Below, piece after piece: positions 6,278 through 44,529 of a DNA stretch of 64,000 bases (position 1 is its first letter; each line of letters starts with the position of its first letter). Origin of the DNA: an uncultured bacterium (GTDB lineage: Bacteria; Hydrothermota; UBA3072). The position numbers and the translations under genes are program-made. Under the pieces are notes generated by a model that did no database searches, was not told the DNA's origin, and was given only the letters and a program-made list of their open reading frames with translations. Location of the stretch: positions 2,173 through 66,172 of the forward strand of contig CAYQMH010000004.1 of assembly GCA_964418485.1 (NCBI GenBank), in the 5' to 3' direction.

Positions 6278-6289
6278 TTCGTAGTACTT

Positions 6290-6460: not shown

Positions 6461-6530
6461 TAGTTTTTTCCTGCCTATTCTCTTTAAAGAGGAATATTGA
6501 CAATGAGCGGGGAATAATTACTTTACCATT

Positions 6531-9147: not shown

Positions 9148-9932
9148 AAATAGGTGTTTTTTATACTCCCGGTAAAGAATATATAGAACTTGTTTTGAAG
9201 AGTGTGGAAAAAGCAGCTGCTGATAACGATATATCACTTGTTTTTTACGATGGAGAAAAAGAAAAGATAAAAGAATGCGATTTTGTTATTGCGGTGGGAG
9301 GGGATGGTACTTTTCTAATGGCGAGTTCAATTATATACGATTTTAACATACCGCTATTAGGTATAAATCTTGGGGGGCTTGGGTTTCTTACCGATATTAG
9401 AAAAGAGGAAATTAACAAAATCTTCACAGAACTAAAAGATGGAAATTACAGGATCCAGGAAAGATTTTTTCTGAAAGCGAACTTCAGGGATAAGGAAAAT
9501 GTGGCTTTGAACGATGTTGTTTTTTCCTCGACCGACATACGAGTCATTGATCTGGATATATATATAAATGATAATTTTGTAACGCAACTTTCCGGAGATG
9601 GTTTAATCGTTGCTACACCTACAGGTTCGACTGCTTATTCTCTGTCTTCAGGAGGCCCTATTTTAGAACCGGATGCCAAAGTTTTTGTTATAACACCTAT
9701 ATCACCTCATGCTTTAACTTTCAGACCTCTAGTTGTGAATCAGGAATCGCGGATACTTATAAAAACTAAAGAAAAGTGCCAGTTAATTTTCGATGGTCAG
9801 AGGTTACTCACTCTTGATTCAGGAGAAGAAGTTTCTGTTGTAAAGAATCCAAATCCGTTAAAAGTAATAAAATTTAAAGATTGGGATTATTTTGATATTC
9901 TTAGAAAAAAATTAAATTGGGGTAATGGATGA
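9144..9932 (+). CDS. nadK: NAD kinase
   Basis: 'GGDGT' motif, 'ATPTGSTAYSLSSGGPI' NADK signature. Confidence 0.85.
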   Translation: MKIGVFYTPGKEYIELVLKSVEKAAADNDISLVFYDGEKEKIKECDFVIAVGGDGTFLMASSIIYDFNIPLLGINLGGLGFLTDIRKEEINKIFTELKDGNYRIQERFFLKANFRDKENVALNDVVFSSTDIRVIDLDIYINDNFVTQLSGDGLIVATPTGSTAYSLSSGGPILEPDAKVFVITPISPHALTFRPLVVNQESRILIKTKEKCQLIFDGQRLLTLDSGEEVSVVKNPNPLKVIKFKDWDYFDILRKKLNWGNG

Positions 9933-11587: not shown

Positions 11588-11645
11588 ACCACAGAGTTCA
11601 CAGAGAGAAAATAAATCACAGAGAACACAGAGCCGCACCCACCTT
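11588..11645. repeat. Intergenic degenerate tandem repeat (xxCACAGAG units)
   Basis: accacagag ttcacagag ... tcacagag aacacagag ccgcaccc directly after the recN stop. Confidence 0.8.
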
Positions 11646-11802
11646 ATTTTTAATTGAGTTTATAAAAAAACAACCCACGACTGTTTTAGAAATAACAGTA
11701 GAAATAACAGGGTTGGACCTTCTTTGAAAAGTGTCAAGGTGAGCAGTTTGCGTGGTAATAAAATGTTGACAAGGTAGATGAATTATGTAACTTAAAAATC
11801 AA

Positions 11803-12701: not shown

Positions 12702-12790
12702 ATCAAATAGAGTAAAGTTCTTATGAATTTTGTTATGTAATATTATTACTTTTATCTGAATATTTATTCATTTTTCCCCAAAAAAACCCC

Positions 12791-12820
12791 TTGACAGCGC
12801 AAAGAAAACTTATATATTCG
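12791..12820 (+). promoter_or_regulatory. Putative FCB/Bacteroidetes-type promoter (TTG-N19-TAtaTTcG) for carAB
   Basis: cTTGacagcgcaaagaaaacttaTATATTCG; spacing matches the -33/-7 consensus TTG-N19-TAnnTTTG. Confidence 0.4.
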
Positions 12821-12878
12821 AGACGGGTTAATTAGTGATCGAAAAGAAAATATCAAGAATAAACAAACGCAATATTGC

Positions 12879-12906
12879 AATGCCTGGTTCCAGGCATATT
12901 TTTTGG
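12879..12906 (+). promoter_or_regulatory. Leader hairpin + U-tract upstream of carA (possible attenuator)
   Basis: atgcctgg-tt-ccaggcat followed by attttttt, about 40 nt before the carA start. Confidence 0.35.
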
Positions 12907-12961
12907 GATTTACTTGAAGTCGTTTTTTATGTAAAAATCAATTTAAATGCGAGGTTATTTT

Positions 12962-14032
12962 ATGTCAGATAATGGTAAGTTAGTTAAACTTGTCCTGGAA
13001 GATGGTTCTGTTTTCGAAGGTTTCTCTTTTGGTTCAAATAAATCCGTAAACGGAGAAGTCGTTTTTAACACCGGCATGGTTGGTTATCCTGAGACTTTAA
13101 CCGATCCTTCTTACAAAGGTCAAATACTTGTTATGACTTATCCTTTAATAGGAAATTACGGAATTCCAGGAGATGAGAAAGAAAATGGTTTATATAAAAA
13201 CTTCGAATCTAACGAGGTTCAAGTTCAAGGTCTTATTGTCTCAGACCTTTCGTTGGATTACTCTCACTGGAGTGCCAAAAAATCTTTATCCCAGTGGCTA
13301 AAGGAAAATAATATACCTGGTATTTATGGTATAGATACAAGAATGTTGACTAAGAAGTTGAGGGAGAAGGGAACGCAGCTTGGAAAAATAATCTATAATA
13401 ACGAAAAAATTAAGTTTGAAGATCCCAATGAAAGGAATTTAGTTGCTGAAGTTAGTATAAATGATGTAATTGAATATAAGAAAAGTAAGAAAAAAATTGC
13501 TGTAATTGATTGTGGTGTTAAGAATAATGTGATAAGAGCTTTTTTAAAAAGAGATATATCCGTAATAAGATATCCATGGGATTACGACTTTACAAAAGAT
13601 AAAATAGATGGTGTTTTAATCTCAAATGGACCTGGAGATCCTAAAAAGTGCGAAGCTACAATAGAAAATATTAAGAAAGCTATTTCGATGAATATACCAA
13701 TTCTCGGTATATGTCTGGGGTCTCAAATTCTTGGGCTTGCTGCAGGAGCAGATACCTACAAGTTAAAATATGGGCATAGAGGTCAGAATCAACCTTGTGT
13801 GGAAGCGGGAACGAAGAGGTGTTATATTACCTCCCAGAATCATGGATATGTAGTAGATTCTACGACTTTAAAGGAAGACTGGAGAGAGTGGTTTTTCAAT
13901 AACAATGATGAAACAAATGAAGGAATACATCATATATCCAAGCCTTTCTTTGGTTCTCAATTCCATCCAGAAGCTTCACCTGGACCTGATGATACTGAAT
14001 TTATTTTTGATATGTTTATGAGGTCAATATGA
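12962..14032 (+). CDS. carA: Carbamoyl-phosphate synthase small subunit
   Basis: GATase class I; catalytic 'GICLGSQ'; N-terminal CPSase small-chain domain; start chosen at MSDNGK (ORF opens at 12947). Confidence 0.9.
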   Translation: MSDNGKLVKLVLEDGSVFEGFSFGSNKSVNGEVVFNTGMVGYPETLTDPSYKGQILVMTYPLIGNYGIPGDEKENGLYKNFESNEVQVQGLIVSDLSLDYSHWSAKKSLSQWLKENNIPGIYGIDTRMLTKKLREKGTQLGKIIYNNEKIKFEDPNERNLVAEVSINDVIEYKKSKKKIAVIDCGVKNNVIRAFLKRDISVIRYPWDYDFTKDKIDGVLISNGPGDPKKCEATIENIKKAISMNIPILGICLGSQILGLAAGADTYKLKYGHRGQNQPCVEAGTKRCYITSQNHGYVVDSTTLKEDWREWFFNNNDETNEGIHHISKPFFGSQFHPEASPGPDDTEFIFDMFMRSI

Positions 14033-17000
14033 TTAAAGATAAGATAAAAAAGGTGTTAATCTTAGGTTCCGGTGCAATACGTATAGGGCAGGCGGGAGAG
14101 TTTGATTATTCCGGAAGCCAGGCAATTAAAGCTTTAAAAGAAGAAGGTATTACAACTGTTCTAATCAATCCGAATATAGCAACCATCCAGACTTCATCCT
14201 ATCTTACAGATAAAATTTACTTTTTACCTTTGGATTTGTATTTCGTTGAAAAAGTAATTGAAAAAGAGAGACCCGATGGGATATTACTGGCATTCGGAGG
14301 GCAGACAGGTTTAAATGTCGGGGCCGAGTTGGCAGAAAAAGGTATACTTGATAAGTATGGCGTTAAAGTACTGGGAACCCCGGTTGAAGTTATTTTAGAT
14401 ACTGAAGACCGGGATCGATTCATAAAGAAAATTACAGAAATAAATCTAAAGGTTCCTGAAAGTAAAGCTGTTAATAATGTCGAAGAAGCCATTAAAGCTG
14501 GTGATAAGATAGGGTATCCAGTTATAGTAAGAATCGCTTACGCCTTAGGAGGTTTAGGTTCAGGTGTTGCTTATAATGAAAAAGAGTTAAGAGATATTGC
14601 AAAAAAGGCGTTTTCTTTTACCAAGCAAATTCTGGTTGAAAAATATCTTGGTGGTTGGAAAGAAATAGAATATGAGGTAGTCAGGGACTGTTACAATAAC
14701 TGCATAGTGGTTTGCTCTATGGAAAATGTTGACCCTATGGGTATACATACCGGTGAAAGTATAGTTGCTGCACCTGTTCAGACTCTTACTGCTTCAGAGA
14801 ATTTCAGATTAAGGGCGTTTACTATTAAGGTTATACGACATCTCGGCATTGTTGGTGAATGTAATATTCAATATGCACTTGACCCTGAATCAGAAGATTA
14901 CAGGATAATTGAAGTTAATGCCAGACTTAGCAGGAGTTCTGCTCTTGCTTCTAAAGCAACGGGATATCCGCTTGCTTTTGTAGCGGCTAAACTTGCTTTA
15001 GGGTACGGTTTAACCGAGTTGAAAAACGCTATAACAAAGGAAACTTCAGCCTGTTTTGAACCTGCTATAGATTATGTTGTTCTCAAATATCCGAGATGGG
15101 ACCTGCAGAAATTCAGAAAAGTCAGCCTTAATATAGGTTCGGAAATGAAGTCTGTAGGAGAAGTAATGGCTATTGCCAGGAGCTTTGAGGAAGTCTTACA
15201 GAAGGCCATCCGTATGTTGGAAGTCGGTATGAATGGAGTAGTATGTAATGATATAGAATTTGATGATCTGGAACAGGAACTGGGAAAGCCGACCGATAAG
15301 AGGATTTTTGCTATAGCTGAAGCTATTAAAAAAGGTTATTCGGTTGATAAAATATATAAAATTTCTAAAGTTGACCAATGGTTCCTTTATAAGATAAAAA
15401 ATATAATCGATATAGAAAAACAGTTAAAAGGAAAGAAAATTGATAAAATTTCAAAAGAGTTGTTGAGAGAAGCCAAGCAAAAGGGATTTTCGGATAAGCA
15501 AATTGCTATTTTGACTGATTCACAGGAGCTTGAAGTAAGGAAAATAAGAAAGAACAAAGGAATTGTACCTTATGTTAAACAGATAGACACGTTGGCCGCG
15601 GAGTATCCCGCTAAAACCAATTATTTGTATTTAACTTATAATGCTTCGGAAGATGATTTGGATTTCAAGGATAAAAATCAAGTTGTTGTACTTGGTGGTG
15701 GAGCATATAGAATTGGTTCTTCCGTTGAATTTGATTGGTGCTGTGTTAATGCCGTTACGGCTCTCAGAAAATTAAATTACAAAGCTATAATGATAAATTA
15801 CAATCCGGAAACGGTCAGTACGGATTATGATATTTGCGATAAACTTTATTTCGACGAAATGACATTTGAAAGAGTTCTGGATATATATGAGAAAGAAAAT
15901 CCCCTTGGAGTTATAATTTCAGTGGGTGGGCAGATTGCAAACAATCTTGCTCTACCTTTGCATAAAAGTGGTGTAAAAATACTTGGAACTTCACCTGTTA
16001 ATATTGATAATGCTGAGGACAGGCACAAGTTTTCGGAGTTACTTGATAAACTTGGTATTGATCAGCCAAAATGGGAGGAAGTTACTACTATTAAAGATGC
16101 GCAAAAATTTGCAAAAGACGTTGGGTATCCTGTTTTGGTTCGTCCGAGTTATGTTCTTAGCGGTGCCGCAATGAGTATAGTTTTAAGTGAAGATGAGTTA
16201 GAAGGGTATCTTAAAAGAGCCTCTGAGGTCAACAAAGAACATCCTGTGGTGATAAGTAAGTTTATTACAGGAGCTAAAGAGATAGAAATCGATGCGGTCG
16301 CCAATAAAGGGGAACTATACTGTTATGCGATATCTGAACATGTAGAGAATGCCGGTGTTCATTCCGGGGATGCGACTATGGTGCTTCCTCCTCAGAGAAC
16401 TTATCTTGAAACGATGAGAAGGATAAAGATAATTGCCAGAAAGATTGCAAAAGCCTTAAACATAACAGGTCCTTTTAATATTCAGTTCATAGCAAAGGGT
16501 AATGAAGTTAGGGTAATTGAGTGTAATTTGAGAGTTTCGAGAAGTTTTCCGTTCGTTTCTAAGTTTCTTAAAATTAATTTTGTTGATGCTGCGACGAGGA
16601 TAATTATGGGAAAGAAGGTTCCTGATCTTACGAATTCTGCTTTTGACCTTGATTATGTTGGTGTGAAAGCACCTCAATTTTCTTTTTCCCGTCTTAAGGG
16701 TTCCGATCCTATCCTTGGAGTTGAAATGGCTTCTACCGGTGAAGTAGGTTGTCTGGGTGACGATTTCAACGAAGCATTTCTAAAAAGTTATATTTCTGTT
16801 GGTTTTGTAATGCCTGAAAAAACAGTATTACTATCTACTGGTCCTATAGGCAATAAAGCGGAATTTTTGGAGAGCACACGCATTCTAAAAGACATGGGAT
16901 TTGAGCTCTATGCTACTAAGGGGACTGCCGAATTTATGAAGAATAATGGAATCGATTCGACAATTCTTTATTGGCCATCGGAAAGTAAGGAACCAAATAC

Positions 17001-17220
17001 TCTTAGCTATATTTCGGATGGCAAGATCGATCTGGTTATAAATATTCCTAAGAATATTGAAAAAGAAGAGCTTGATAATGACTATCTTATAAGACGTCAG
17101 GCTGTTGATTTTAACGTTCCTCTTATTACGGATTTACAAGTGGCAAAAAGGTTGGTAGAAGCAATGCAAAAAACTTCTTTAAAGGATTTGAAAATCAAAA
17201 GCTGGGATGAATATGAATAA
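14029..17220 (+). CDS. carB: Carbamoyl-phosphate synthase large subunit
   Basis: 1063 aa; duplicated ATP-grasp halves, oligomerisation and MGS-like domains; overlaps the carA stop. Confidence 0.95.
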   Translation: MIKDKIKKVLILGSGAIRIGQAGEFDYSGSQAIKALKEEGITTVLINPNIATIQTSSYLTDKIYFLPLDLYFVEKVIEKERPDGILLAFGGQTGLNVGAELAEKGILDKYGVKVLGTPVEVILDTEDRDRFIKKITEINLKVPESKAVNNVEEAIKAGDKIGYPVIVRIAYALGGLGSGVAYNEKELRDIAKKAFSFTKQILVEKYLGGWKEIEYEVVRDCYNNCIVVCSMENVDPMGIHTGESIVAAPVQTLTASENFRLRAFTIKVIRHLGIVGECNIQYALDPESEDYRIIEVNARLSRSSALASKATGYPLAFVAAKLALGYGLTELKNAITKETSACFEPAIDYVVLKYPRWDLQKFRKVSLNIGSEMKSVGEVMAIARSFEEVLQKAIRMLEVGMNGVVCNDIEFDDLEQELGKPTDKRIFAIAEAIKKGYSVDKIYKISKVDQWFLYKIKNIIDIEKQLKGKKIDKISKELLREAKQKGFSDKQIAILTDSQELEVRKIRKNKGIVPYVKQIDTLAAEYPAKTNYLYLTYNASEDDLDFKDKNQVVVLGGGAYRIGSSVEFDWCCVNAVTALRKLNYKAIMINYNPETVSTDYDICDKLYFDEMTFERVLDIYEKENPLGVIISVGGQIANNLALPLHKSGVKILGTSPVNIDNAEDRHKFSELLDKLGIDQPKWEEVTTIKDAQKFAKDVGYPVLVRPSYVLSGAAMSIVLSEDELEGYLKRASEVNKEHPVVISKFITGAKEIEIDAVANKGELYCYAISEHVENAGVHSGDATMVLPPQRTYLETMRRIKIIARKIAKALNITGPFNIQFIAKGNEVRVIECNLRVSRSFPFVSKFLKINFVDAATRIIMGKKVPDLTNSAFDLDYVGVKAPQFSFSRLKGSDPILGVEMASTGEVGCLGDDFNEAFLKSYISVGFVMPEKTVLLSTGPIGNKAEFLESTRILKDMGFELYATKGTAEFMKNNGIDSTILYWPSESKEPNTLSYISDGKIDLVINIPKNIEKEELDNDYLIRRQAVDFNVPLITDLQVAKRLVEAMQKTSLKDLKIKSWDEYE

Positions 17221-17224
17221 TTTA

Positions 17225-17247
17225 ATAGGACGCAGATGAACGCAGAT
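17225..17247 (+). repeat. Conserved 23-nt motif ATAGGACGCAGATGAACGCAGAT (copy 1 of 3)
   Basis: Identical 23-mer also at 42148-42170 and 44507-44529; internal 10-bp direct repeat GNACGCAGAT x2. Confidence 0.85.
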
Positions 17248-17305
17248 AAACAGGATTTGATTTTGAATTTTCTGAAGAAAAATAATGTTTCTTGGGGAGG
17301 ATAGG

Positions 17306-18340
17306 ATGGATCTGCAAATTCCGGAAGATTATATTAATCATTTAAATTTAAAAGAGACAGAGGAAGCGATTAAATTAGTAAAGGATTACTTTGAAGTTGA
17401 GCTTGCAAATCAATTAAATTTACAAAGAGTTAGTGCTCCTTTATTTGTAGTTGCTGGTACCGGGATTAATGATGATCTTAACGGTGTCGAAAGACCGGTC
17501 TCTTTTGATTTGAAGAATATATCTAACGTGGAAGCGGAGATTGTTCAATCTCTTGCGAAATGGAAGAGAATGGCTCTAGCCGGATATGGATTTGCACTGG
17601 GGAGTGGATTGTACACCGATATGAATGCCGTAAGACGGGATGAGGTTTTAGATAATTTACACTCGATTTATGTGGATCAGTGGGACTGGGAAAGGGTAAT
17701 ATCACGCGAAGAAAGGAATTTAGATTTTTTAAAGGATATTGTAAGAAAGATATATCAGGTTTTAAAAGAAACGGAAATGGTTGTGTATAAAAAATTTCCT
17801 GAGTTACAGCCATTTCTCCGGGATGAAATAAGTTTTGTGCACAGCGAAGAATTACAGGAAAGATATCCTGATCTTTCTCCGAGAGATAGGGAAGATGCTA
17901 TTACTAAAGAGAAGGAAGCTGTCTTTGTTATAGGTATCGGAGGAAAACTTGCAGATGGCAAAGTACATGACGGAAGAGCTCCGGATTACGACGATTGGAC
18001 TACACCTACGGGAGAGAAAACAAAAGGTTTAAATGGTGACATATTTGTTTGGAATCCGGTGTTGCAAAAGGGTTTCGAAATTTCATCTATGGGTATAAGA
18101 GTCGATAAGGAAGCCTTACTAAAACAGCTCAAGATTACAAATACAGAGGATAGAAAAGAATTGACATGGCATAAGATGCTTTTAGAGGATAGATTACCTC
18201 TTTCCATAGGGGGAGGAATCGGTCAATCCCGTCTTTGTATGTTACTTCTCCAGAAAGCACATATAGGGGAAGTTCAGTGCGGTGTGTGGCCGGATGAGAT
18301 GGTGCGTGCCTGCGAGGAAAATAATATCTTTTTGCTTTAA
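17306..18340 (+). CDS. asnA: Aspartate--ammonia ligase (asparagine synthetase A)
   Basis: AsnA-type class II aaRS-like fold; N-terminus 'MDLQIPEDYI..LKETEEAI'; C-terminus '[18 protein letters not shown]'. Confidence 0.85.
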   Translation: MDLQIPEDYINHLNLKETEEAIKLVKDYFEVELANQLNLQRVSAPLFVVAGTGINDDLNGVERPVSFDLKNISNVEAEIVQSLAKWKRMALAGYGFALGSGLYTDMNAVRRDEVLDNLHSIYVDQWDWERVISREERNLDFLKDIVRKIYQVLKETEMVVYKKFPELQPFLRDEISFVHSEELQERYPDLSPRDREDAITKEKEAVFVIGIGGKLADGKVHDGRAPDYDDWTTPTGEKTKGLNGDIFVWNPVLQKGFEISSMGIRVDKEALLKQLKITNTEDRKELTWHKMLLEDRLPLSIGGGIGQSRLCMLLLQKAHIGEVQCGVWPDEMVRACEENNIFLL

Positions 18341-18351
18341 GAGAAAATTAT

Positions 18352-18462
18352 ATGGACGACAAAACTAAAGGTCAGATTGAGGCACAGATCAGTGAAGCAA
18401 TAGTAAAATTCGAAAAAGAATATATGGGTAGAGGGCCGACCTATCGTATGCCTTATCGATGA
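18352..18462 (+). pseudogene. Truncated DUF2294-family gene remnant
   Basis: 'MDDKTKGQIEAQISEAIVKFEKEYMGRGP' matches the DUF2294 N-terminus, then a premature stop; the C-terminal-like piece continues in another frame. Confidence 0.5.
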
Positions 18463-18533
18463 GAAGTATTATTGAAGAGCTCAATCGAATTGAAGAGTTC
18501 ATAAATAAACTTACTTGAGAGGAGGTAATTAGA

Positions 18534-19772
18534 ATGTCAAAAATTTACATTATAGATGTAACGAATCGAGATGGAGTCCAGACTTCGCGGATATGTCTTT
18601 CCAAACTGCAGAAAACCATAATAAATCTTTATCTTTCTCAAGTGGGAGTTTTTCAATCTGAATTTGGTTTCCCTACAACGCACCACGAGACAAATTATCT
18701 CAATGCAAATTTAGAGTTAGCCCGTAGCGGAGTTTTTGGTAAATTGCGTTTAGGAGGCTGGATCCGAGCAATTGAGGAGGATGTAAATTTGACCTTTAAT
18801 TTGTTAACTGATGTAGAGCATTTAAATCTCTCTATTTCTACTTCCGACCAGATGATAGCACATAAATTTAAAGGTAAATTAGACCATACCGCAGTGATAA
18901 AAGAAATGGTTGATGCGGTAAAGCTAGCCAGAGAATTAGGTGCAAAATCCATAGGTGTAAACGCCGAAGATGCATCCCGCTCCAACATGGATTATCTTAT
19001 TTCTTTTGCCGTTGCAGCTAAAGAAGCAGGTGCGGATAGATTTCGTTATTGCGATACCTTAGGCTATGATACACCGTTTACAATATATAATCGGATTCAA
19101 AAAATTGCTGAGAAGATAAAAATACCTATTGAATTGCACTGCCATAATGATCTTGGAATGGTAATTGCCAATTCGTTAGCGGGTGCTATGGCAGCTAATG
19201 ATACGGGGATGGACGCCTATATCAATACCTGTATAAATGGTATGGGGGAACGCGCAGGCAATGCAGATCTGATTTCTGTAATTTTAGCGATTAAACATGG
19301 AAGCGAGATGAAAGATAAGTATATCCTGGATGAAAGAATTGACTTAAAGATAGCATGGAGAATCTGTAAATATGCTTCTTATGCATTTGGCATCCCAATA
19401 CCTATCAATCAACCTGGTATTGGTGCCAATGCTTTTGCTCATGAATCGGGTATTCACGCTGACGGTGCGCTGAAAGACAGACGTAATTACGAACTTTATG
19501 ATTTCGAGGAACTGGGTCGTGGTGAGCCGGAAGTTATTGAGACCGGCAGACAGATTACCGTGGGAGAATACTCCGGAATAAAAGGTTTTAGAAATGTCTA
19601 TGAGAAATTAGAAATAGTTTTTAAAGATGATGCTGAAGCAACCAGAATTCTGGAATTGGCGAGGTTCGCAAATGTGCATAACCAGAAACCGCTGGTGGCG
19701 GAAGAATTAAAATTTATAGCTCAGTATCCTGAAATAGCAAAGAAAATTATGACGATGTTATCGTTGAGTTAA
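18534..19772 (+). CDS. HMGL-like (DRE-TIM metallolyase) protein, divergent 2-isopropylmalate/homocitrate/citramalate synthase family
   Basis: 'DVTNRDGVQ' (cf. DTTLRDGEQ), 'HCHNDLGM', 'GERAGNA', 'HESGIH' metal and substrate motifs. Confidence 0.7.
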   Translation: MSKIYIIDVTNRDGVQTSRICLSKLQKTIINLYLSQVGVFQSEFGFPTTHHETNYLNANLELARSGVFGKLRLGGWIRAIEEDVNLTFNLLTDVEHLNLSISTSDQMIAHKFKGKLDHTAVIKEMVDAVKLARELGAKSIGVNAEDASRSNMDYLISFAVAAKEAGADRFRYCDTLGYDTPFTIYNRIQKIAEKIKIPIELHCHNDLGMVIANSLAGAMAANDTGMDAYINTCINGMGERAGNADLISVILAIKHGSEMKDKYILDERIDLKIAWRICKYASYAFGIPIPINQPGIGANAFAHESGIHADGALKDRRNYELYDFEELGRGEPEVIETGRQITVGEYSGIKGFRNVYEKLEIVFKDDAEATRILELARFANVHNQKPLVAEELKFIAQYPEIAKKIMTMLSLS

Positions 19773-19904
19773 ATCGGCGAGAAAGAAACGTAGTAAATAT
19801 TTGATTTATAAAAGAGGGGTTTTGAGATTTCAGCAATGGGGATAAAGGTTAATAAAGGAGCTTTACTAAAGCACCTTTAAATTACGGGTACTTAGAACAG
19901 AAAA

Positions 19905-20086
19905 AATTCAATATGGCATAAAATGCTTTTAGAGGGCAAATTACCTCTTTCCATAGGGGGTGGGATAGGTCAGTCCCGTCTTTGTATGCTAACCTTGCAG
20001 AAAGCACATATAGGGGAAGTTCAGTGTGGTGTCTGGCCGGATGAGATGGTGCGTGCCTGTGAGGAAAATAATATCTTTTTGCTTTA
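19905..20086 (+). pseudogene. Diverged duplicate of the asnA 3' end (last ~57 codons), no start codon
   Basis: ~88% nt identity to 18160-18340; encodes [57 protein letters not shown]; most differences are synonymous. Confidence 0.85.
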
Positions 20087-20090
20087 AAAT

Positions 20091-20226
20091 GGGACGCAGA
20101 TTAACTCAGATTCATAGGATTTTTTATTCTTTTTTGCTAAATCCTAACTGAACCACAAAGACCACAAAGATCACAAAACCCATCCACACACCAAGTTTAA
20201 TATTGTTTTCTTAACTGCTAACTGCA
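20091..20226. repeat. Composite intergenic repeat element (GGACGCAGAT-like, ACCACAAAG array, C-rich core, TTAACTGC x2)
   Basis: gggacgcagattaactcagat ... accacaaag accacaaag atcacaaaacccatccacacacc ... ttaactgctaactgc. Confidence 0.8.
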
Positions 20227-20333
20227 TAAGATATACTACGATTAGAGTAAAAATTAAAAGAAATGAAGATTTTTAATGTGAGAATATTTTTGCTAGTTAA
20301 ATTTAGTTTTAGCTGTATCGGAGGAAAATAATT

Positions 20334-20849
20334 ATGGAAGGGACTATAATAATTGCAATATGTGCGCTATTTGTGTCTATCTGCTCGACATGTTTGGCGG
20401 CATGGACCGCCTTTGTCCAGAGGAGGCATATGCAACTTTCGGTACTGCCGATTGCTGCAATTCCTATTGCAGATTATGAGAATAGAATTGGCGTTTTTCT
20501 TCAAAATAAAGGGCTTGGTCCTATGCGAATCATTTCACTTCGAGTAATAAATGACAAAGATGTTTCAAAAAACGCCGTTGTGTTCCATATGCCAGAACTT
20601 AATCCTGGAATTCTCTGGACGAACTTTCGCGGCAGTGTTGATGGAGCTACGTTGGAAGCTTCTGAGCGTTTCGACTTGCTTCTCCTTGAAGGCGGTCCAA
20701 AAAATTTAGCATTTGCAGAATCACGGGACCGAATAAGACGTAGCCTTTCCCAACTAGAAATTAAGGTCGAATATGAAGATATTTACGGGCGTAAAATGTA
20801 CCCTCTTGAGAAGAAACTCTCGTTTTTCGGAAGACATAAACTCAAGTAG
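20334..20849 (+). CDS. Hypothetical protein, N-terminal membrane anchor
   Basis: 171 aa; single N-terminal TM; no family recognised; lies in the islet with hicAB. Confidence 0.45.
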   Translation: MEGTIIIAICALFVSICSTCLAAWTAFVQRRHMQLSVLPIAAIPIADYENRIGVFLQNKGLGPMRIISLRVINDKDVSKNAVVFHMPELNPGILWTNFRGSVDGATLEASERFDLLLLEGGPKNLAFAESRDRIRRSLSQLEIKVEYEDIYGRKMYPLEKKLSFFGRHKLK

Positions 20850-21104
20850 GATAAGCATAGGATACCCGCTAACAAAGAAATTCAGTAGATACGAAATGCA
20901 GCAAGGTTCATTTGAATGTTAGGCAGGAATGATAAAATAAGCTCTTGAAATGGGAAAAGAGTTAACCGGAAATGTTGAAATTGGTTATACGGCTTAACGG
21001 TGATGTTTTTACGATTAATATTAGTATATAAACTATGTTAGGCATTCTAAGAAGTTGAACAGCACTTGACACAAATTTACTATTATGTAAAATAAATATA
21101 TAAG

Positions 21105-21359
21105 ATGCCTAGGCAGGAAAAAGTATTAATAAAAATTTTACGGGGAACATCTGACACTAACGTTTCTTTTTCGGAGATATGTGGGTTGTTGAAAGCTCTT
21201 GGCTTTGGCGAACGAGTTCGAGGAAGCCATCATATTTTCACAAAGGAAGGCGTGGAAGAGATCGTAAATTTACAGCCTAAAGGAGCGAAGGCAAAACCAT
21301 ATCAGGTAAAGCAGATTAGAAATATCATACTACGATATAAATTAAAACTTGGAGGATAA
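21105..21359 (+). CDS. hicA: Type II toxin-antitoxin system HicA-family toxin
   Basis: YcfA/HicA-like; 'RVRGSHHIF' motif; small basic protein. Confidence 0.7.
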   Translation: MPRQEKVLIKILRGTSDTNVSFSEICGLLKALGFGERVRGSHHIFTKEGVEEIVNLQPKGAKAKPYQVKQIRNIILRYKLKLGG

Positions 21360-21360
21360 A

Positions 21361-21573
21361 ATGGTTAATAAATATGAAATAATCATTTATTGGAGTGAGG
21401 AAGACAAGGCTTTTATTGCCGAAGTTCCAGAGCTTTCCGGGTGTATGGCAGACGGAGAAACATATCAAGATGCTCTATCGAATGTTGAAGTTATTATACA
21501 AGAGTGGATTGAGACTGCAAGAGAATTAGGACGACCAATTCCACAGCCTAAAGGTCGATTAGTATATGCCTAA
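21361..21573 (+). CDS. hicB: HicB-family antitoxin (UPF0150)
   Basis: 'YEIIIYWSEEDKAFIAEVPELSGCMADGETYQDAL' typical HicB N-domain; SD GGAGGA precedes the ATG at 21361. Confidence 0.7.
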   Translation: MVNKYEIIIYWSEEDKAFIAEVPELSGCMADGETYQDALSNVEVIIQEWIETARELGRPIPQPKGRLVYA

Positions 21574-21587
21574 CAACTATTTCCAAT

Positions 21588-21612
21588 CGACCGAAACCGC
21601 GGTTTTTGAATT
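21588..21612 (+). terminator. Putative intrinsic terminator after hicB
   Basis: Perfect palindrome aaaccgcggttt followed by ttga/T-rich. Confidence 0.35.
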
Positions 21613-21727
21613 TACTCGGTTTGACTTCCTCGAAGGATTTGTTGCAACTTCAATATTCAATAGCGGAAATGTTTCAGCGATTGAAACTTGACGTTAAGCA
21701 GTGGGGTAGCTAAAACAGAAAATAAAA

Positions 21728-21860
21728 AGGTGTGGGGTGGTGGATGTTAGTGTCTTTCGTGTATTTTTTTAACACAATTTAAAAGGGGTGGTGGTTTTAG
21801 TGTATTTAGTGTGTTTCGTGGTTAAATAAATTGTTTTTTTCTATGTATCTGTGTCCATAA
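21728..21860. repeat. Composite intergenic repeat (reverse orientation: GGGTGGTGG cores + CTTTCGTG/GTGT arrays)
   Basis: gtgtggggtggtggatgttagtgtctttcgtg ... ggggtggtggttttagtgtatttagtgtgtttcgtgg. Confidence 0.7.
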
Positions 21861-21870
21861 AAATAAAAAA

Positions 21871-21986
21871 GCCCGGCAGCGACCTACTCTCTCACCTCCG
21901 AAGAGGCAATACCATAAGCACTGGAGAGCTTGACTTCCGTGTTCGGAATGGAAACGGGTATAACCTCTCCGTTATGGCCACCGAGC
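21871..21986 (-). rRNA. rrf: 5S ribosomal RNA (standalone; no 23S/16S within the window)
   Basis: Minus-strand sequence GCTCGGTGGCCATAACGGAGAGGTTATACCCGTTTCCATTCCGAACACGGAAGTCAAGCTCTCCAGTGCTTATGGTATTGCCTCTTCGGAGGTGAGAGAGTAGGTCGCTGCCGGGC matches the bacterial 5S consensus (CCGAACACGGAAGTTAAGC, GAGAGTAGG); terminal helix I pairs. Confidence 0.9.
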
Positions 21987-22070
21987 AATGAGATAATAAT
22001 TGGTTTTTATTATTTGTCAACCCCCATTTTAAAATTAAATATCAAAAATCAAAATGTAGATTCTTCGAAT

Positions 22071-22215
22071 CTTAGTTGAATGGTTGAATTATTGAATAGT
22101 TGAATAGGAAAAAAAAGAACATCTTTGTGCCCTTTGGGGTTAATTTTTAACCATTAGCATTGGGTTTAGAGTTTTCTGTTACCATTTTCCTATTTTCCCA
22201 TTCTTCAATTTTCCT
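22071..22215. repeat. Short tandem repeats (TTGAATRG xN; ATTTTCC xN)
   Basis: ttagttgaatggttgaattattgaatagttgaatagg ... ccattttcctattttcccattcttcaattttcc. Confidence 0.6.
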
Positions 22216-22230
22216 AATTTGTTTTGGGGT

Positions 22231-23964
22231 TTAAAACGAATATCCCGACCAAATATTAAAGTATCTTCCCATTCCAGGATAATCTCTGTCTGTGTATGAG
22301 CTGCCGAAACTCTCAATGTATTCTGTGTCAAATAAATTCTCAACGCTGAGCCCAACCATAAAGTCATTAAATTTCTTGCTGATTCCTATATCTATTATAA
22401 AAGCAGGGTCTTCTATTTTCCATCCTCCGTATGAGAACCATTTTTTCCTTTCTCCGATCCATTTTCCAGATACTTCGACGTTTATTGGACCTTCATAAGT
22501 AATAATACCTGCGACAGAGTGTTTCGGTTGATGTTGAAGTTCTCTTTTTAATCCGTTTTCCTCATCATAACCGTCGAGATAAGAATATATCAATGAGTAC
22601 GAGATATCTTCATATTTAACTTTACCTTCTATATCGATACCGAAAACCCTGGTTTTAGAGATGTTTTGCGGAATCCAGTATTCGTCTAGTCCTATCCTGT
22701 CGTTTATTTCTTCTATATAACCGGATATTGTAATATTTTCGATTTTTATTCCTCCGCTTAAAGCAAGAGAGTATTCCGGTTTAAGTTCCTTATTGGAAAA
22801 GCCCGGATAGTAAAGATCGTACAATGTTGGGGCCTGGAATCCGGAACCAACTGACGCAAAAATCTCGAGTGGTTTAGTGATTCTACTTCCTATTGTGAAA
22901 GATGGATGGAATCCAAAACTTCCATACCAGTCTTCTCTTACTGAGATGAATGTATTTGTATTATCGGTTTCATGGAAAAGAGAAAGTGTTATCCCTGCTT
23001 TTTCTTCTTCAAATGAAAAAAATGTGGCGTAATTCGATGTATACTGGTCAATCCATACTTTGTCTTTTTCAAGGTTAACTTCCAGTGATAGCATTTTGTA
23101 TAGGAATTTTGTATTGAATTGACCTACAGCTGTTTTATATTTATCATTTTGTATAACTGTGTCTATAAATAAATATTTGAAGTCATATTTAATCCGTTCT
23201 CCGGTTAACGATGGCTCTATAAGTATGCCTAAATCACCGTATGACAAGATCTTGTTGTACGAAAGATCTACAAATTCTGTTTGCTGGTTATCGAAAAGGG
23301 ATGTTGCGGTAGAGTCTCCAAATATTGGAAGGACAGTACTATCGGGCAGGGCACCCGGTACGCCAAGGTTTTTATAACTTGCGGTAAAATTAAAATCATT
23401 CCAATTAAAAATAGCTGAATAACGTCCAAAATCCGTATTACTCCTTTGTCCTTTGCCTTTCTCGAGGTTAAGATTTCCGTTTATACCGTATTTATACATC
23501 TGTAAGTCTGCTCCAACTGTGGTATTCGAATTTCCTTTGAAACTTATTTGATTAGTTTCTTTTCCGGTGATAAGGTTTACAATCCCGCCAATTGCATTAG
23601 AACCCTGGAATACGGATGATGAGCCTTTGACTATTTCGATTCTTTTTATCGCACTTAGTGGTATTGCGGAAAGATCGAATCCGCCTGTTTTTGGGTCGCT
23701 CACTCTGTGCCCGTTTAGCATTATAAGTGTATGTTTTGAAGTATATCCGTGTACGGCTGCTTGTGTCAAGGAACTCGGATCACCGTTTCCGTATATTTTA
23801 ATTCCTGCTTCTTTTTCGAGAATTTCTCCCAGTTCGTCGATAGTCAACATATCTTCGACCTCAATTATCTCGACTTGATAGGGTAGATATTCAAACCTTT
23901 CTCCAGTTACGGTTATACCTTTTGATTCAAAGTACAGTACGCTTAGTATGATTAATAACATCAA
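22231..23964 (-). CDS. btuB: TonB-dependent outer-membrane receptor, BtuB-like (vitamin B12 transporter)
   Basis: 577 aa; N-terminal plug domain; C-terminal beta-barrel ending in aromatic F; downstream of a cobalamin riboswitch on the same strand. Confidence 0.7.
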   Translation of the reverse strand: MMLLIILSVLYFESKGITVTGERFEYLPYQVEIIEVEDMLTIDELGEILEKEAGIKIYGNGDPSSLTQAAVHGYTSKHTLIMLNGHRVSDPKTGGFDLSAIPLSAIKRIEIVKGSSSVFQGSNAIGGIVNLITGKETNQISFKGNSNTTVGADLQMYKYGINGNLNLEKGKGQRSNTDFGRYSAIFNWNDFNFTASYKNLGVPGALPDSTVLPIFGDSTATSLFDNQQTEFVDLSYNKILSYGDLGILIEPSLTGERIKYDFKYLFIDTVIQNDKYKTAVGQFNTKFLYKMLSLEVNLEKDKVWIDQYTSNYATFFSFEEEKAGITLSLFHETDNTNTFISVREDWYGSFGFHPSFTIGSRITKPLEIFASVGSGFQAPTLYDLYYPGFSNKELKPEYSLALSGGIKIENITISGYIEEINDRIGLDEYWIPQNISKTRVFGIDIEGKVKYEDISYSLIYSYLDGYDEENGLKRELQHQPKHSVAGIITYEGPINVEVSGKWIGERKKWFSYGGWKIEDPAFIIDIGISKKFNDFMVGLSVENLFDTEYIESFGSSYTDRDYPGMGRYFNIWSGYSF

Positions 23965-24469
23965 ACCTCCTTTTTTGTATTTTTTGAATTGTTGGGGTTA
24001 AAACAAAACTATAAATAATTCCTTGAGTAAAGACGTGCCAGATAACAAAAGGCAGTCCCAGAATGAAGTAAGCCATAAAACTCTTCCTTGTAGGAAAAAG
24101 AATGAATCCGGATGATGTAGTTAGTATATCGGATATAAGAGTAATTAGAACTCCTAAGGGTAAGATGATATGCGCTTTATTCCATCCTTTTTTATTGCAA
24201 AATCCTCCGGAAAATCCTATTAAGGTGCCTACGAGTACCTGTGTTAGTAAAAGAGGCGGGGGAGATATACCCATGGGATTTAATAAACCGAAAATGAAAT
24301 AAGTAAGGATTCCAACCAGCGTTCCTGTACGTATTCCGAATAGTGCTCCGGATAGGAAGACAGTAGAAGAAACAAGTTCAAAATTAGGGATATACGCGAA
24401 TGCGTACCCTAAACCTAAGGCTAACGCTGTAAATATTGTTACATATGATATTTCTTTTAGTTTTTCTAT
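23927..24469 (-). CDS. Small polytopic membrane protein in the B12-riboswitch operon; no canonical start codon (possible ATA start)
   Basis: ORF is open for ~60 codons upstream of the first ATG (MGISPP..) and encodes the hydrophobic N-terminus '..EKLKEISYVTIFTALALGLGYAF..'; SD GAGGGGAGAG sits 5 nt before an in-frame ATA. Confidence 0.5.
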   Translation of the reverse strand: MEKLKEISYVTIFTALALGLGYAFAYIPNFELVSSTVFLSGALFGIRTGTLVGILTYFIFGLLNPMGISPPPLLLTQVLVGTLIGFSGGFCNKKGWNKAHIILPLGVLITLISDILTTSSGFILFPTRKSFMAYFILGLPFVIWHVFTQGIIYSFVLTPTIQKIQKRRFDVINHTKRTVL

Positions 24470-24489
24470 TTTTTCTCTCCCCTCGGAGT

Positions 24490-24660
24490 ACTCATAAATA
24501 GCAGGTCTCCTGACTTATGGCCGGCCTACTCACTGCACCTTCCCGGAATAAATCCAGTGGTAACGTTGCAGCTTTCGTTGCCAAATACAGTAGCGGGGCT
24601 GTAACGGATTCTAACCGCTTTCCCTTAACTATTCCGTTTTATAATACTCTATTGTTGGTA
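24490..24660 (-). ncRNA. Cobalamin (AdoCbl) riboswitch
   Basis: Minus strand: ..TTAAGGGAAAGCGGTTAGAATCCGTTACAGCCCCGCTACTGT.. (GGGAA/GGTnnAATCC/CCCGC core), ..GCCACTGG.., and B12-box AAGTCAGGAGACCTGC (consensus rAGYCMGgAgaCCkGC) immediately before the SD of the downstream gene. Confidence 0.85.
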
Positions 24661-24696
24661 AAAGTCAAGACCATACAGCTTTGAATTGAAAGAAAG

Positions 24697-24848
24697 GCGA
24701 GGGCTAACCGTTCATCAGGAACGCGGTCAATTTTCCCACCGTGAAAATTGCCGCTCGCTCTCAGCCTCACTCCTCTTGAAATATAAATATTTCAAGAGAC
24801 CATGGCCGCACGGCTTCCGAGACGTCCTTCTGAACGGTTAGCCCTCGC
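24697..24848. repeat. 152-bp element bounded by a perfect 18-bp inverted repeat (gcgagggctaaccgttca / tgaacggttagccctcgc) with two internal hairpins; MITE-like or structured RNA
   Basis: Read directly from the sequence; internal hairpins gcggcaattttcac..gaaaattgaccgc and tcttgaaatat-aaatatttcaaga. Confidence 0.7.
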
Positions 24849-24907
24849 TTCAATCAGGGGGTGTTTCTTTTCCAAAATGTGAAAAGTAAAGTGAGGAATG
24901 GTTTTTT

Positions 24908-25000
24908 AAACCACAGAATATTTTTTGTTCTCTGTGGTTTTATTTTTTCTCTGTGTGCTCTGTGGTAAAATTGTTTTTTGGGGAGGGGGTGTAGCGGCTT
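24908..25000. repeat. Intergenic repeat (CTCTGTG arrays + GGGGAGGGGG)
   Basis: ccacagaata..ttctctgtgg..ttctctgtgtgctctgtgg..ggggagggggtg. Confidence 0.75.
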
Positions 25001-25006
25001 TGCCGC

Positions 25007-26272
25007 TCAGAACTTTCCCTGTATTCCTTTAATTACGTCGTTGAATATTATCAAAGCCATGAGAGAAAAAAGAATAATGGTGCCAGTCGTTTGAACAATT
25101 TTTAAAAGTGTTTTAGAAGGAGCTTTTCTTGTATTAAAAGTAGCTAGTGATACTATAATATAGAACCCATCGAGTGGCGGTATAGGAATAAGATTTACCA
25201 TAGCAAGATTAATTGTTATAAGTCCTACAAACATTAAGAACCATATAAAACCTCGATTTAGTTGTTTTTTGGTAATTATTACTATGCCTACAGGTCCTGC
25301 AAGTTCTTTTGGTGAAACTTTTCTCTGGAATAACCAGCTAAATGTTCGAGAAATTAGTAAGGCGGTATTACAGCTTTGTTGCCACGCAAATGAGATTGCC
25401 TGTATTCCACCAATACTTATTTTAGTTGAAAGTGGTTCTATTCCGATTATCCCTCTACTTATTATTGAATCTCCCTCCATGATCTTTTGCTTGTCGGGTA
25501 CTATATTAATTTTCATTGTATCGCCATTTGATAGGTATACGACGTTCAGTGTTTCTTCTGCCGCGGGATGGATTAGATCAGTTATGTCATTCCAGCTGTT
25601 TATGGATTTGTCTTGAATTTTGATTATCCGGCTGTCTTTTTTCATACCTGCTTTATCGGCGGGTAAATTTTTAATTACGTTACCTACTACCGGAAGTATG
25701 AAAGGAATTAATGAGTCAATGTTTAGAGAATCAATCACTATATCTGTTTTTTCTCCCTCTCGGAGGAGCGAAATTTTAGAGTTCTTTTGTATTTTTTCTA
25801 TAATTTCATACCAGTTGTTTATTTTCTTTCCGTCTATTTCCAATATTTCATCATTTGGTAAAAGGTTGCTCCCTGCATTTGCTTCTTTTATTGTAGTCGT
25901 CGGGATTACTTCGATGCCGTTGAATATGAAAACAGACAGGAATATTAAAAATCCGAGAGTGAAATTGCCAAACGAACCGGCGAAAACAACTGCTGTTTTT
26001 TGTAATCCGTTTTTAGAAAAAAATTCGTCATCTTCACCTTTAATTTGGTCCGGGTCCATTCCTTTTATTTCGACATATCCCCCAAAGGGTATTGCGGATA
26101 ACCTAAATTCCGTCTCTCCCCATTTGTAAAAAGAAAATAGTTTCGGACCAAGACCTATAGAGAAAACGGGGGCACTCATTTTTGACCACTTGGCTACAAT
26201 TAAATGGAAAAATTCGTGAACAAAGATCATAACGCTTAAAGCGATAAGTGCGGCAATTATACCTAAAAACAT
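25007..26272 (-). CDS. rseP: RIP (site-2) zinc metalloprotease RseP
   Basis: 'HEFFHLIVAKW' HExxH in TM1; PDZ domains; C-terminal LDG motif 'PIPPLDGF'. Confidence 0.85.
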   Translation of the reverse strand: MFLGIIAALIALSVMIFVHEFFHLIVAKWSKMSAPVFSIGLGPKLFSFYKWGETEFRLSAIPFGGYVEIKGMDPDQIKGEDDEFFSKNGLQKTAVVFAGSFGNFTLGFLIFLSVFIFNGIEVIPTTTIKEANAGSNLLPNDEILEIDGKKINNWYEIIEKIQKNSKISLLREGEKTDIVIDSLNIDSLIPFILPVVGNVIKNLPADKAGMKKDSRIIKIQDKSINSWNDITDLIHPAAEETLNVVYLSNGDTMKINIVPDKQKIMEGDSIISRGIIGIEPLSTKISIGGIQAISFAWQQSCNTALLISRTFSWLFQRKVSPKELAGPVGIVIITKKQLNRGFIWFLMFVGLITINLAMVNLIPIPPLDGFYIIVSLATFNTRKAPSKTLLKIVQTTGTIILFSLMALIIFNDVIKGIQGKF

Positions 26273-44477: not shown

Positions 44478-44529
44478 CAAACAAAGCACACAAAGACACA
44501 AAGAAAATAGGACGCAGATGAACGCAGAT
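44478..44529. repeat. CACAAAG array + 23-nt motif copy 3 (44507-44529)
   Basis: caaacaaagcacacaaagacacaaagaaaataggacgcagatgaacgcagat. Confidence 0.85.

Follow-up and report, generated by a model that had tools for sequence, protein, structure and literature searches.

How an intact asnA gene came to be followed by a second, partial copy of its own 3' end, with other genes lying between the two, is the question raised by this locus of the uncultured phylum WOR-3, which was analysed within a 64,000-nt stretch of DNA (the window). An earlier note on this DNA had read the intervening segment as foreign, acquired by homologous recombination anchored in asnA. The analysis reported here indicates that positions 18341-20087 are quite probably a recombination scar, lying in a hot spot of gene turnover that extends from asnA to a lone 5S rRNA gene in a clade of WOR-3 bacteria. 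Features of the locus are collected in Table 1.

Table 1. Features between carB and the lone 5S rRNA gene (positions in the window)
Feature	Position	Strand	Remarks
Dispersed intergenic repeat copy (AATAGGACGCAGATGAACGCAGAT...), between carB and asnA	17224-17271	+	
asnA (aspartate-ammonia ligase), intact, 344 aa	17306-18340	+	TIGR00669 433 bits, PF03590 360 bits
Left copy of the 271-nt direct repeat (tail of the functional asnA)	18070-18340	+	
MpsC (DUF2294) codons 1-29; left edge of the 3.4-kb deletion	18352-18437	+	
End of aminotransferase gene (last ~25 codons, SYALSMRSIIEELNRIEEFINKLT, and stop); right edge of the deletion	18442-18518	+	Matches C-terminus of the L169 aminotransferase
HMGL-like (homocitrate-synthase-like) gene, intact, 412 aa	18534-19772	+	PF00682 and PF22617
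3' flank of the HMGL-like gene, short, cluster-derived, common to L180	19773-19796	+	
asnA 3' pseudogene remnant (right repeat copy)	19812-20087	+	Homology to asnA, in the asnA frame
Intact 54-codon asnA C-terminal ORF within the remnant	19923-20087	+	
3' flank of the remnant, found behind asnA in L101 and partly in L083 (cluster-less relatives)	20088-20225	+	
Second dispersed-repeat copy, opening the 20088 flank	20088-20135		
Rest of the variable slot	20334-21573	+	
171-aa ORF, uncharacterised, in the variable slot	20334-20849	+	
HicA/HicB toxin-antitoxin pair in the variable slot	21105-21573	+	
5S rRNA gene, lone; right border of the variable slot	21871-21985	-	

The resident asnA, whose real start is at 17306 (a 351-aa version of the ORF gave no exact look-up match), scores above the curated equivalog cut-off of TIGR00669 (292.8 bits). 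Its tail recurs as a direct repeat (18070-18340 and 19817-20087) of 271 nt at 83.0% identity and a spacing of 1747 nt, and is thus longer than the approximately 175 nt first recognised; the last 175 nt are 90.3% identical, close to the earlier estimate of about 88%, and exact shared runs of 26-29 nt lie near the stop codon. Within the last 54 codons, 16 nucleotide differences fall in 12 codons, nine of which are synonymous and three non-synonymous (D>G, R>K, L>T), and the previously listed changes of DR to GK and L to T are the only amino acid changes there. When 16 random substitutions were simulated (n=20,000), a mean of 11.3 codons changed non-synonymously and three or fewer did so in no run (P<5e-5).

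Two in-frame stops (19878-19880 and 19893-19895), both in its 5' third, make the second copy a pseudogene, and a possible third stop (19809-19811) lies at the edge of the homology. By tblastn, the remnant (19812-20087) is 81% identical to AsnA over residues 254-344. Its nucleotide identity is 83% with the resident asnA and 81-86% with asnA of other WOR-3 lineages, which amounts to about equal distance. Because of the synonymous bias and a divergence like that between WOR-3 lineages, the second tail derives from a diverged, once-functional asnA allele of the same clade, as the earlier note had argued in preference to a target-site duplication. A transposon target-site duplication was rejected on the length and identity of the repeat and on the absence of a transposase and of terminal inverted repeats. 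The remnant itself is probably without function; neither a terminator nor structured RNA was found in its 5' part (z = 0.69; terminator prediction empty). Among the 178 asnA loci fetched, a second asnA fragment occurs only in this sequence, and the same layout, which would have implied an ancient stable structure, was not seen in relatives.

The DNA between the two tails has a fuller counterpart in the WOR-3 relative L169, in which the gene order is asnA-mpsC-PEPCK-aminotransferase-HMGL-5S. Window positions 17306-18437 align to L169 5406-6526 and positions 18442-19758 to L169 9907-11222; the L169 segment skipped in the window measures 3.4 kb and holds the 3' part of mpsC, the PEPCK gene and the aminotransferase gene. 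Through the deletion, MpsC codons 1-29 are fused with the final 25 codons of the aminotransferase gene. The MpsC fragment (18352-18437) is identical to full-length L169 MpsC at 25 of 26 residues, and beyond 18437 its ORF leaves the frame and stops at 18462; the N-terminal fragment 18352-18462 matches PF10057 over 26 of 111 profile positions. The feature described as a degraded DUF2294 gene is therefore a genuine DUF2294 fragment, but one side of a 3.4-kb internal deletion and not a product of slow decay. The L169 PEPCK, aminotransferase and suf genes were not found elsewhere in the 64-kb window. The aminotransferase-HMGL pair is also present in L181, and L180 carries asnA-mpsC' (24 codons)-HMGL with a nested deletion larger than that of the window, to which it is 90.1% identical in nucleotides over HMGL. 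No asnA remnant was found in L180 within the 116 nt of contig past the HMGL stop, a distance within which that of the window begins (~40 nt past).

In a tree, the HMGL-like gene groups with L180 (100/100) and then with the WOR-3 copy of L169 (64/100), contrary to a non-native phylogeny, and the G+C profile is flat, with no anomaly across the locus. Judged by gene order and alignment, the insert is a cut-down derivative of an L169-type WOR-3 cluster and not distantly foreign DNA.

The HMGL-like gene is intact, as first described, but the label divergent does not hold, since the protein belongs to a highly conserved family and is 77-92% identical to homologues in several phyla. A ribosome-binding site of its own precedes the gene, terminator prediction found nothing between asnA and the gene, and, lying directly behind asnA, it is probably co-transcribed with it. 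Its best NCBIfam match is the nifV-type homocitrate synthase at 269.9 bits versus a cut-off of 462.9, and its score is far under every curated equivalog cut-off; with the cut-off missed and no nif genes in the locus or in L169, NifV homocitrate synthase was rejected as its identity. Isopropylmalate and homocitrate synthases come nearest among solved structures, and the HMGL-like TIM barrel and HCS_D2 domain are common to the gene and the Re-citrate/homocitrate/isopropylmalate synthase family. Re-citrate synthases are frequently annotated as homocitrate synthase (PMC12016533). Because its L169 neighbours PEPCK, aminotransferase and asnA act around oxaloacetate and aspartate, the gene is a candidate Re-citrate synthase, an assignment drawn from gene neighbourhood and literature.

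In nine closer asnA relatives (L083, L084, L086, L089, L173, L174, L176, L178 and L179), asnA is followed by no cluster. The content behind asnA differs in each, the 5S rRNA gene is reached in seven of the nine, and wherever sequence before asnA is available it contains carB, or carAB on contigs long enough. The 5S rRNA gene forms the right-hand border of the slot in all examined WOR-3 relatives with sequence reaching that far. Scans of genome and metagenome contigs for asnA gave listed matches mostly to distant phyla at no more than 68% identity, and the useful ones among those listed were L089 and L101. The remnant and its 3' flank match the cluster-less layout: L101 runs collinear with them for 409 nt (19817-20225), and the collinearity of L083 with the flank extends 24 nt past the stop. 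In relatives that lack the insert, the sequence behind the remnant thus directly follows asnA, in line with what the earlier note had proposed to look for.

The 48-nt repeats at 17224 and 20088 are copies of one dispersed intergenic repeat; as cassette borders they were dropped, the repeat being dispersed in intergenic sites. The locus offers no tRNA or tmRNA as an integration target, and neither the 171-aa ORF nor the 54-aa ORF gave a PHROG or Pfam match.

Identity to individual relatives changes along the locus. The carAB genes are 88.6% identical to L086 versus 76-79% for the surrounding sequence, and this L086-like recombination patch ends at 17223. From ~17480 to ~18060, asnA is ~90% identical to L173 and L179, with lower values after a drop near 18060-18100; the remnant is 79% identical to L173, which rules it out as a continuation of the L173-like part of asnA. 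Towards L169, identity is uniformly ~76-77%, and no donor-type breakpoint was found in the asnA tail. The locus is heavily mosaic, and asnA is a recombination anchor.

Two versions of the locus occur in the clade: a cluster version (asnA-mpsC-PEPCK-aminotransferase-HMGL-like synthase-5S) and a cluster-less version (carAB-asnA-dispersed repeat-assorted small genes-5S), and pieces of both stand head to tail in the window. The first piece comprises the full asnA and the cluster minus 3.4 kb, which had held the whole PEPCK gene and the greater part of mpsC and of the aminotransferase gene, and the second, starting ~20-40 nt after the HMGL stop, comprises the last ~275 nt of another asnA allele and the cluster-less flank. 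DNA of a diverged relative would have recombined through a single homologous crossover together with a single illegitimate end-join. The latter is required because an ordinary double crossover by homologous recombination leaves the anchor unduplicated; of the mechanism first put forward, asnA as anchor stands. The joint is placed between about 19788 and 19816, where the overlap AACGTAGTAA fits microhomology and is also not unique (3-10 bp criterion).

Two geometries are considered for this event. In the first, the somewhat likelier of the two though short of even odds, a fragment made up of the asnA tail, mpsC' and HMGL, either circularised or self-restoring, would have integrated at a cluster-less locus through one crossover within asnA, which would duplicate the asnA anchor; the remnant would then be expected to resemble the L173-like upstream asnA, contrary to its actual identity to L173. 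In the second, possible but rather doubtful, a cluster-less fragment broken within asnA would have been caught beside HMGL by homology-facilitated illegitimate recombination (HFIR) anchored in the 5S rRNA gene, which requires loss or replacement of the cluster in many relatives. Both geometries leave unexplained that the first 35 codons of the remnant are decayed while the last 54 look functional, and an origin other than these two is unlikely.

Comparable events are on record. Recombinants recovered in E. coli HFIR screens include single-crossover integrations of a circular DNA bearing part of a chromosomal gene, which left the homologous anchor duplicated over 109-950 bp (PMC3240628). As in such Campbell-type integration, the insert in the window is flanked by a direct duplication (here ~275 bp) of one full and one 5'-truncated copy, the truncated copy being cut where the fragment began. 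The window differs in that its copies are 10-30% apart, so that the partners were diverged alleles of different lineages, and in that its event is reconstructed, with no known circular intermediate or vector; beyond a 68-nt conserved motif, neither plasmid similarity nor a free circle was found. Classical HFIR combines insertion with deletion (PMC3240628); the studies that PMC5361080 and PMC3240628 cite for it, on bacteria capable of natural transformation, are de Vries & Wackernagel 2002, Prudhomme et al. 2002 and Meier & Wackernagel 2003. HFIR resembles the window in that a single anchor (here asnA or 5S rRNA) is combined with a single illegitimate joint, that ~1-2 kb is inserted and that the DNA comes from relatives, and in the window the donor DNA came from a diverged relative sharing one anchor (83% versus 81-86%; mosaic locus). 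In its classical form, however, HFIR replaces recipient DNA and leaves the anchor unduplicated, which fits only the 5S-anchored geometry. Displaced 3' gene ends and orphan modules are also seen in T6SS effector-immunity arrays and Rhs/CDI loci (PMC5361080), in which, as in the window, the arrival of a new module next to a conserved 5' region leaves the old 3' end orphaned farther downstream. Those loci involve polymorphic toxins, repeated events and selectable orphan immunity genes, whereas the window involves a housekeeping amidoligase and a single event, with no sign of cassette use. The scar is of a known kind, an ordinary product of recombination between relatives.

The uneven decay of the remnant invites the alternative that selection maintains its 54-codon ORF, which would encode a small protein or act as a spare cassette for the asnA tail, exchanged by recombination. 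Residues unseen in 41 functional alleles (40 full-length relatives and the window's own asnA) make up 7 of 35 in the 5' codons and 1 of 54 in the last codons, changes at invariant sites number 4 of 14 and 0 of 33, respectively, and the third-position divergence ratio of the two parts is 2.78 versus a maximum of 1.78 among 45 functional pairs. The boundary between the decayed and intact parts coincides with an in-frame ATG. If true, a maintained ORF would explain the synonymous-type divergence behind 35 decayed codons and, as a tail cassette, would be an analogue, in a housekeeping enzyme, of Rhs/CDI orphan C-terminal cassettes. Such maintenance is nevertheless improbable: the numbers are small, no Shine-Dalgarno sequence precedes the ATG, unlike those of asnA and HMGL, the ORF has no family match, such a cassette occurs at no other asnA locus, and pre-existing mosaicism or a later recombinational refreshing of the 3' part would be simpler.

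It is quite improbable that the asnA tail was tandemly duplicated in place and that the copy then diverged and was partly deleted, without any contribution from another lineage. The orientation is direct, and in the last 175 nt the two tails are mutually nearest (90.3% versus at most 88.6% to others). A truncated copy would have drifted neutrally, yet nine of the 12 changed codons are synonymous; over its 5' 96 nt the remnant is 80% identical to L101 but 70% identical to the resident tail, and its flank matches the other locus type.

The geometry also recalls elements that enter and restore gene 3' ends, and a site-specific integrative element at the asnA 3' end, carrying a replacement tail, would make the two tails attL and attR; the exact runs that they share lie near the stop codon. 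This element is highly improbable, as the ORFs in 18341-21857 include no integrase, recombinase or transposase and the content from asnA to 5S consists of mpsC', the aminotransferase remnant, HMGL, the 171-aa ORF and HicAB. The metabolic cluster that forms the cargo is of a housekeeping type and occupies the same slot in L169 without the repeat, a plasmid match is absent, and the second tail is found in none of 178 other asnA loci.

Barely credible is a chimera stringing together two strain variants of the asnA end: the contig is metagenome-assembled and the JGI contig (L001) ends inside the repeat, but L001 and an independently assembled Logan contig (L002) match the window at 100% identity, L002 spans both asnA copies and both joints, the copies are not a collapsed or duplicated repeat because they are only 83-90% identical, and the second copy, with its stops and mid-gene start, is unlike a coexisting functional strain variant. 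The assembly error that the earlier note had allowed for is thereby answered. The same joint was found in no close relative, and the event rests on one sequence, identical in several assemblies.

The asnA-5S slot holds different genes in every relative, and the recombination scar is a base-level clean example of gene-content turnover beside a conserved gene in the uncultured phylum WOR-3, in which two slot versions were probably spliced and a datable pseudogene left behind. The comparison also uncovered a conserved oxaloacetate/aspartate cluster of asnA, mpsC, PEPCK, an aminotransferase and a citrate-synthase-like enzyme, which has been stepwise reduced in the lineage of the window. The understanding of recombination mechanisms is unaltered by the scar. 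Lineages 10-25% apart in DNA swap kilobase patches at the asnA locus, and exchange on this scale across such divergence matters for species delineation and for the binning of metagenome genomes.

The host, a bacterium with low G+C content, belongs to candidate division WOR-3, and the nearest proteins to its asnA product (84-91% identity) are metagenomic, the named ones being from WOR-3. The gene (17306-18340; TIGR00669, 433 bits against a cut-off of 293) has its 3' end directly repeated in the same register over 271 nt (18070-18340 and 19817-20087, 83.0% identity), rising to 90.3% over the last 175 nt. An earlier note on this DNA had reported the diverged duplicate, which is confirmed here; its coordinates covered the better-conserved part of the full repeat. 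A second asnA fragment is found in the window alone among the 178 asnA loci fetched. The identical sequence is present in two further assemblies (JGI 3300031554 and Logan SRR9707468), and the SRR9707468 contig runs across the two copies and the two joints. At only 83-90% identity the copies are too unlike for a collapsed repeat, one of the refuting cases named beforehand, or for one duplicated by artefact; an assembly chimera is excluded by the stop codons in the second copy and by contigs that span it in independent assemblies.

Over the last 54 codons the copies differ at 16 nt in 12 codons, nine of them synonymous; 20,000 simulations of 16 random substitutions each gave a mean of 11.3 non-synonymous codons and no run with three or fewer, which argues that the two tails diverged almost entirely while selection still kept the AsnA C-terminus functional. 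The proposed origin of the second tail (hereafter the remnant) in a diverged yet functional asnA is thus borne out, and the same bias excludes in-place duplication of the tail. As the earlier note had held, this is no target-site duplication, for which both the length and the divergence of the repeat are too great, and an att-flanked integrative element is rejected on the lack of a recombinase and the housekeeping type of the cargo.

In L169, a contig from a WOR-3 relative (Logan SRR27730042), the gene order is sufC, sufD, asnA, mpsC (full-length, 121 aa), GTP-dependent PEPCK, aminotransferase, HMGL-like, and 5S rRNA. Its stretch from asnA to 5S rRNA (5406-11786) looks like a conserved oxaloacetate/aspartate cluster. 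The window aligns to L169 in two blocks, 17306-18437 to 5406-6526 and 18442-19758 to 9907-11222; the MpsC fragment is identical at 25 of 26 residues, and the frame past the junction reads the aminotransferase C-terminus (SYALSMRSIIEELNRIEEFINKLT and stop in the window, ISYALSMEDIVEGINRFEEFISKLC and stop in L169). These matches show that the supposed degraded DUF2294 gene (18352-18462), whose MpsC/DUF2294 N-terminus is indeed present, marks the left edge of a clean deletion of 3.4 kb, in which most of mpsC, the whole PEPCK gene, and most of the aminotransferase gene were lost. The insert, for which foreign DNA had been suggested, is on this homology a shortened form of a cluster that is native to the clade itself. 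Its G+C content is level throughout.

A closer relative for this segment, L180 (Logan SRR24270839; HMGL 90.1% identical in nucleotides and 92% in protein), carries asnA, a 12-nt spacer, a 24-codon mpsC fragment, and HMGL. Set against window 18215-18545, L180 1-260 has the mpsC fragment joined directly to the HMGL ribosome-binding site. L180 lacks the 97 nt equivalent to 18425-18521, and its nested, slightly larger deletion suggests stepwise or repeated loss of the PEPCK and aminotransferase genes with HMGL still expressed behind asnA. Likeness to the window 3' of HMGL ends at 19796; no remnant is seen in the 116 nt between the L180 HMGL stop and the contig end, and the window remnant starts about 40 nt after the stop. 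The aminotransferase-HMGL pair is also present in L181, from another lineage.

Features of the insert and of the stretch up to the 5S rRNA gene, with the dispersed repeat
Feature	Position	Strand	Remarks
Spacer			11 nt directly 3' of asnA stop
MpsC/DUF2294, first 29 codons	18352-18437		PF10057
Gap			4 bases between mpsC fragment and aminotransferase remnant
Aminotransferase gene, last ~25 codons and stop	18442-18518		
Ribosome-binding site and intact HMGL-like gene	18534-19772		412 aa; PF00682 and PF22617
HMGL 3' flank			about 20-40 nt
Second asnA tail (remnant)			in-frame stops at 19878 and 19893
ORF, 171 aa	20334-20849		hydrophobic N-terminus; no Pfam, NCBIfam or PHROG match
HicA/HicB toxin-antitoxin pair	21105-21573		
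5S rRNA gene	21871-21985	minus	Rfam, 86 bits
Dispersed intergenic repeat, AATAGGACGCAGATGAACGCAGAT...	17224-17271, 20088-20135, 42148-42180, 44508-44540		

The HMGL-like protein had been called divergent and its phylogeny proposed as a check for non-native origin. Homologues are 77-92% identical across WOR-3, Omnitrophota, Elusimicrobiota, Woesearchaeota, and Hadarchaeota, and a neighbour-joining tree places the window copy with L180 (100/100) and next with the WOR-3 copy of L169 (64/100), so that the gene is conserved and not demonstrably alien. Between archaea (Woesearchaeota, Hadarchaeota) and the bacterial candidate phyla the family (proteins P0121-P0240) keeps an unusually high protein identity of 77-87%, a sign of strong constraint, of recent transfer between the domains, or of the two together. 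The gene scores well below all curated equivalog cut-offs (e.g. nifV, 270 bits vs 463), and among solved structures isopropylmalate and homocitrate synthases come closest. Re-citrate synthases belong to the same superfamily and are commonly annotated as homocitrate synthase (PMC12016533). Since its neighbours in L169 (PEPCK, aminotransferase, AsnA) each have oxaloacetate or aspartate to work on, a candidate Re-citrate synthase is a reasonable lead.

Nine closer asnA relatives (L083, L084, L086, L089, L173, L174, L176, L178, and L179) have a variable slot 3' of asnA, with carB (carAB where the contig reaches) upstream in those with upstream sequence and the 5S rRNA gene reached downstream in seven. 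Slot content differs per relative (e.g. DUF6869, a PadR pair, a Transgly_assoc protein, unknown ORFs); mpsC, HMGL, and a second asnA piece are absent from all nine loci. The 171-aa ORF and the HicA/HicB pair, which take up the remainder of the window's slot, are without homologues in the slots of the relatives. The lone 5S gene, within a conserved block (21858-22054), is the right-hand border of the slot, in L169 as well, and shows 87-95% conservation in every WOR-3 relative with a contig long enough to include it. Its promoter is near-consensus (TTGACA-16-TATTAT, 22020-21993); no 16S or 23S gene was found in an Rfam search of 17000-25500 or called in the relatives' loci. On long contigs of the closer relatives the genes after 5S are those for a TonB-dependent receptor, rseP, and dxr. 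In the window a cobalamin riboswitch (24485-24666, minus, 91.9 bits) lies upstream of a small ORF and a TonB-dependent receptor (22231-23964, minus); in L169 the gene after 5S is cbiQ instead.

Relatives lacking the insert do have asnA followed directly by the sequence at 20091, as the earlier note had proposed to check: window 19817-20225 aligns over 409 nt to another relative, L101, from its asnA tail into the DNA downstream, and the L083 alignment extends 24 nt beyond the stop. The remnant is continuous with this cluster-less layout (carAB, asnA, slot, 5S).

Comparison with relatives gave no simple answer as to which tail is native, because the asnA region is, judging from its shifting affinities, a recombination mosaic. 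The carA-carB stretch (12753-17223) is 88.6% identical to L086 between flanks that are 76-79% identical to it and nearer other relatives, and forms a homologous-recombination patch of kilobase scale, exchanged between lineages that differ by about 20%. The best match of asnA shifts to L173/L179 (about 90% over 17480-18060), fading near 18060-18100, close to the repeat start. The tails have low likeness to L169 (76% and 73%), and the L180 tail is nearest the cluster-less L083 (91%). Over the last 175 nt the window copies are mutually nearest (next best 88.6%); in the 96 nt before that, L101 is closer to the remnant (80%) than the resident tail is (70%). The dispersed repeat often adjoins CACAAAGA-type runs, and the motif ACGCAGAT occurs 8 times vs 0.8 expected. 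Repeat copies also follow carB or asnA in relatives, and one begins precisely at the end of the L086-like patch (17223/17224).

The remnant itself is heterogeneous, with a decayed front and an intact back. Its first 35 codons hold two in-frame stops, seven novel residues (unseen in 41 functional alleles, i.e. 40 full-length relatives and the window's own asnA), and changes at 4 of 14 invariant positions; the last 54 hold no stops, one novel residue, and changes at 0 of 33. At third positions the remnant differs from the resident tail in 18/35 vs 10/54 codons, a ratio of 2.78 (maximum in 45 functional pairs, 1.78). Mosaic parent alleles beforehand, or later recombination refreshing the 3' part from a cluster-less relative, may explain this and are favoured. 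Selection maintaining an ATG-initiated 54-codon ORF (19923-20087), with which the intact part coincides, is less favoured; the ORF has no Shine-Dalgarno sequence, family match, or RNA structure.

A homologous-recombination scar anchored in asnA, as first suggested, holds in that a diverged functional allele was probably involved, but one illegitimate joint is also needed, because a flanking double crossover would exchange the slot and leave no duplicate behind. Tentatively, and at close to an even chance, a donor fragment (asnA tail, mpsC fragment, aminotransferase remnant, HMGL), circularised or otherwise self-restoring, would have entered a cluster-less locus through a single crossover in asnA. 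Every flank is cluster-less in type, one gain is more parsimonious than many losses, and the affinity change near 18060-18100 adjoins the repeat start. In E. coli, single crossovers with circular molecules duplicated 109-950 bp of the anchor (PMC3240628), the same product as such entry would leave. It is also possible, if somewhat less likely, that classical homology-facilitated illegitimate recombination, which yields insertion plus deletion (PMC3240628), joined a cluster-less fragment broken within asnA to the DNA downstream of HMGL, with 5S rRNA as the homologous anchor. This mechanism is simpler, L169 and L180 carry the cluster in the slot without a remnant, and remnant and flank act as a single L101-like block. 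For T6SS and Rhs loci a comparable process has been put forward, in which new modules displace older 3' ends that are left as orphans (PMC5361080). The asnA scar is a fresh instance of an already known kind of event.
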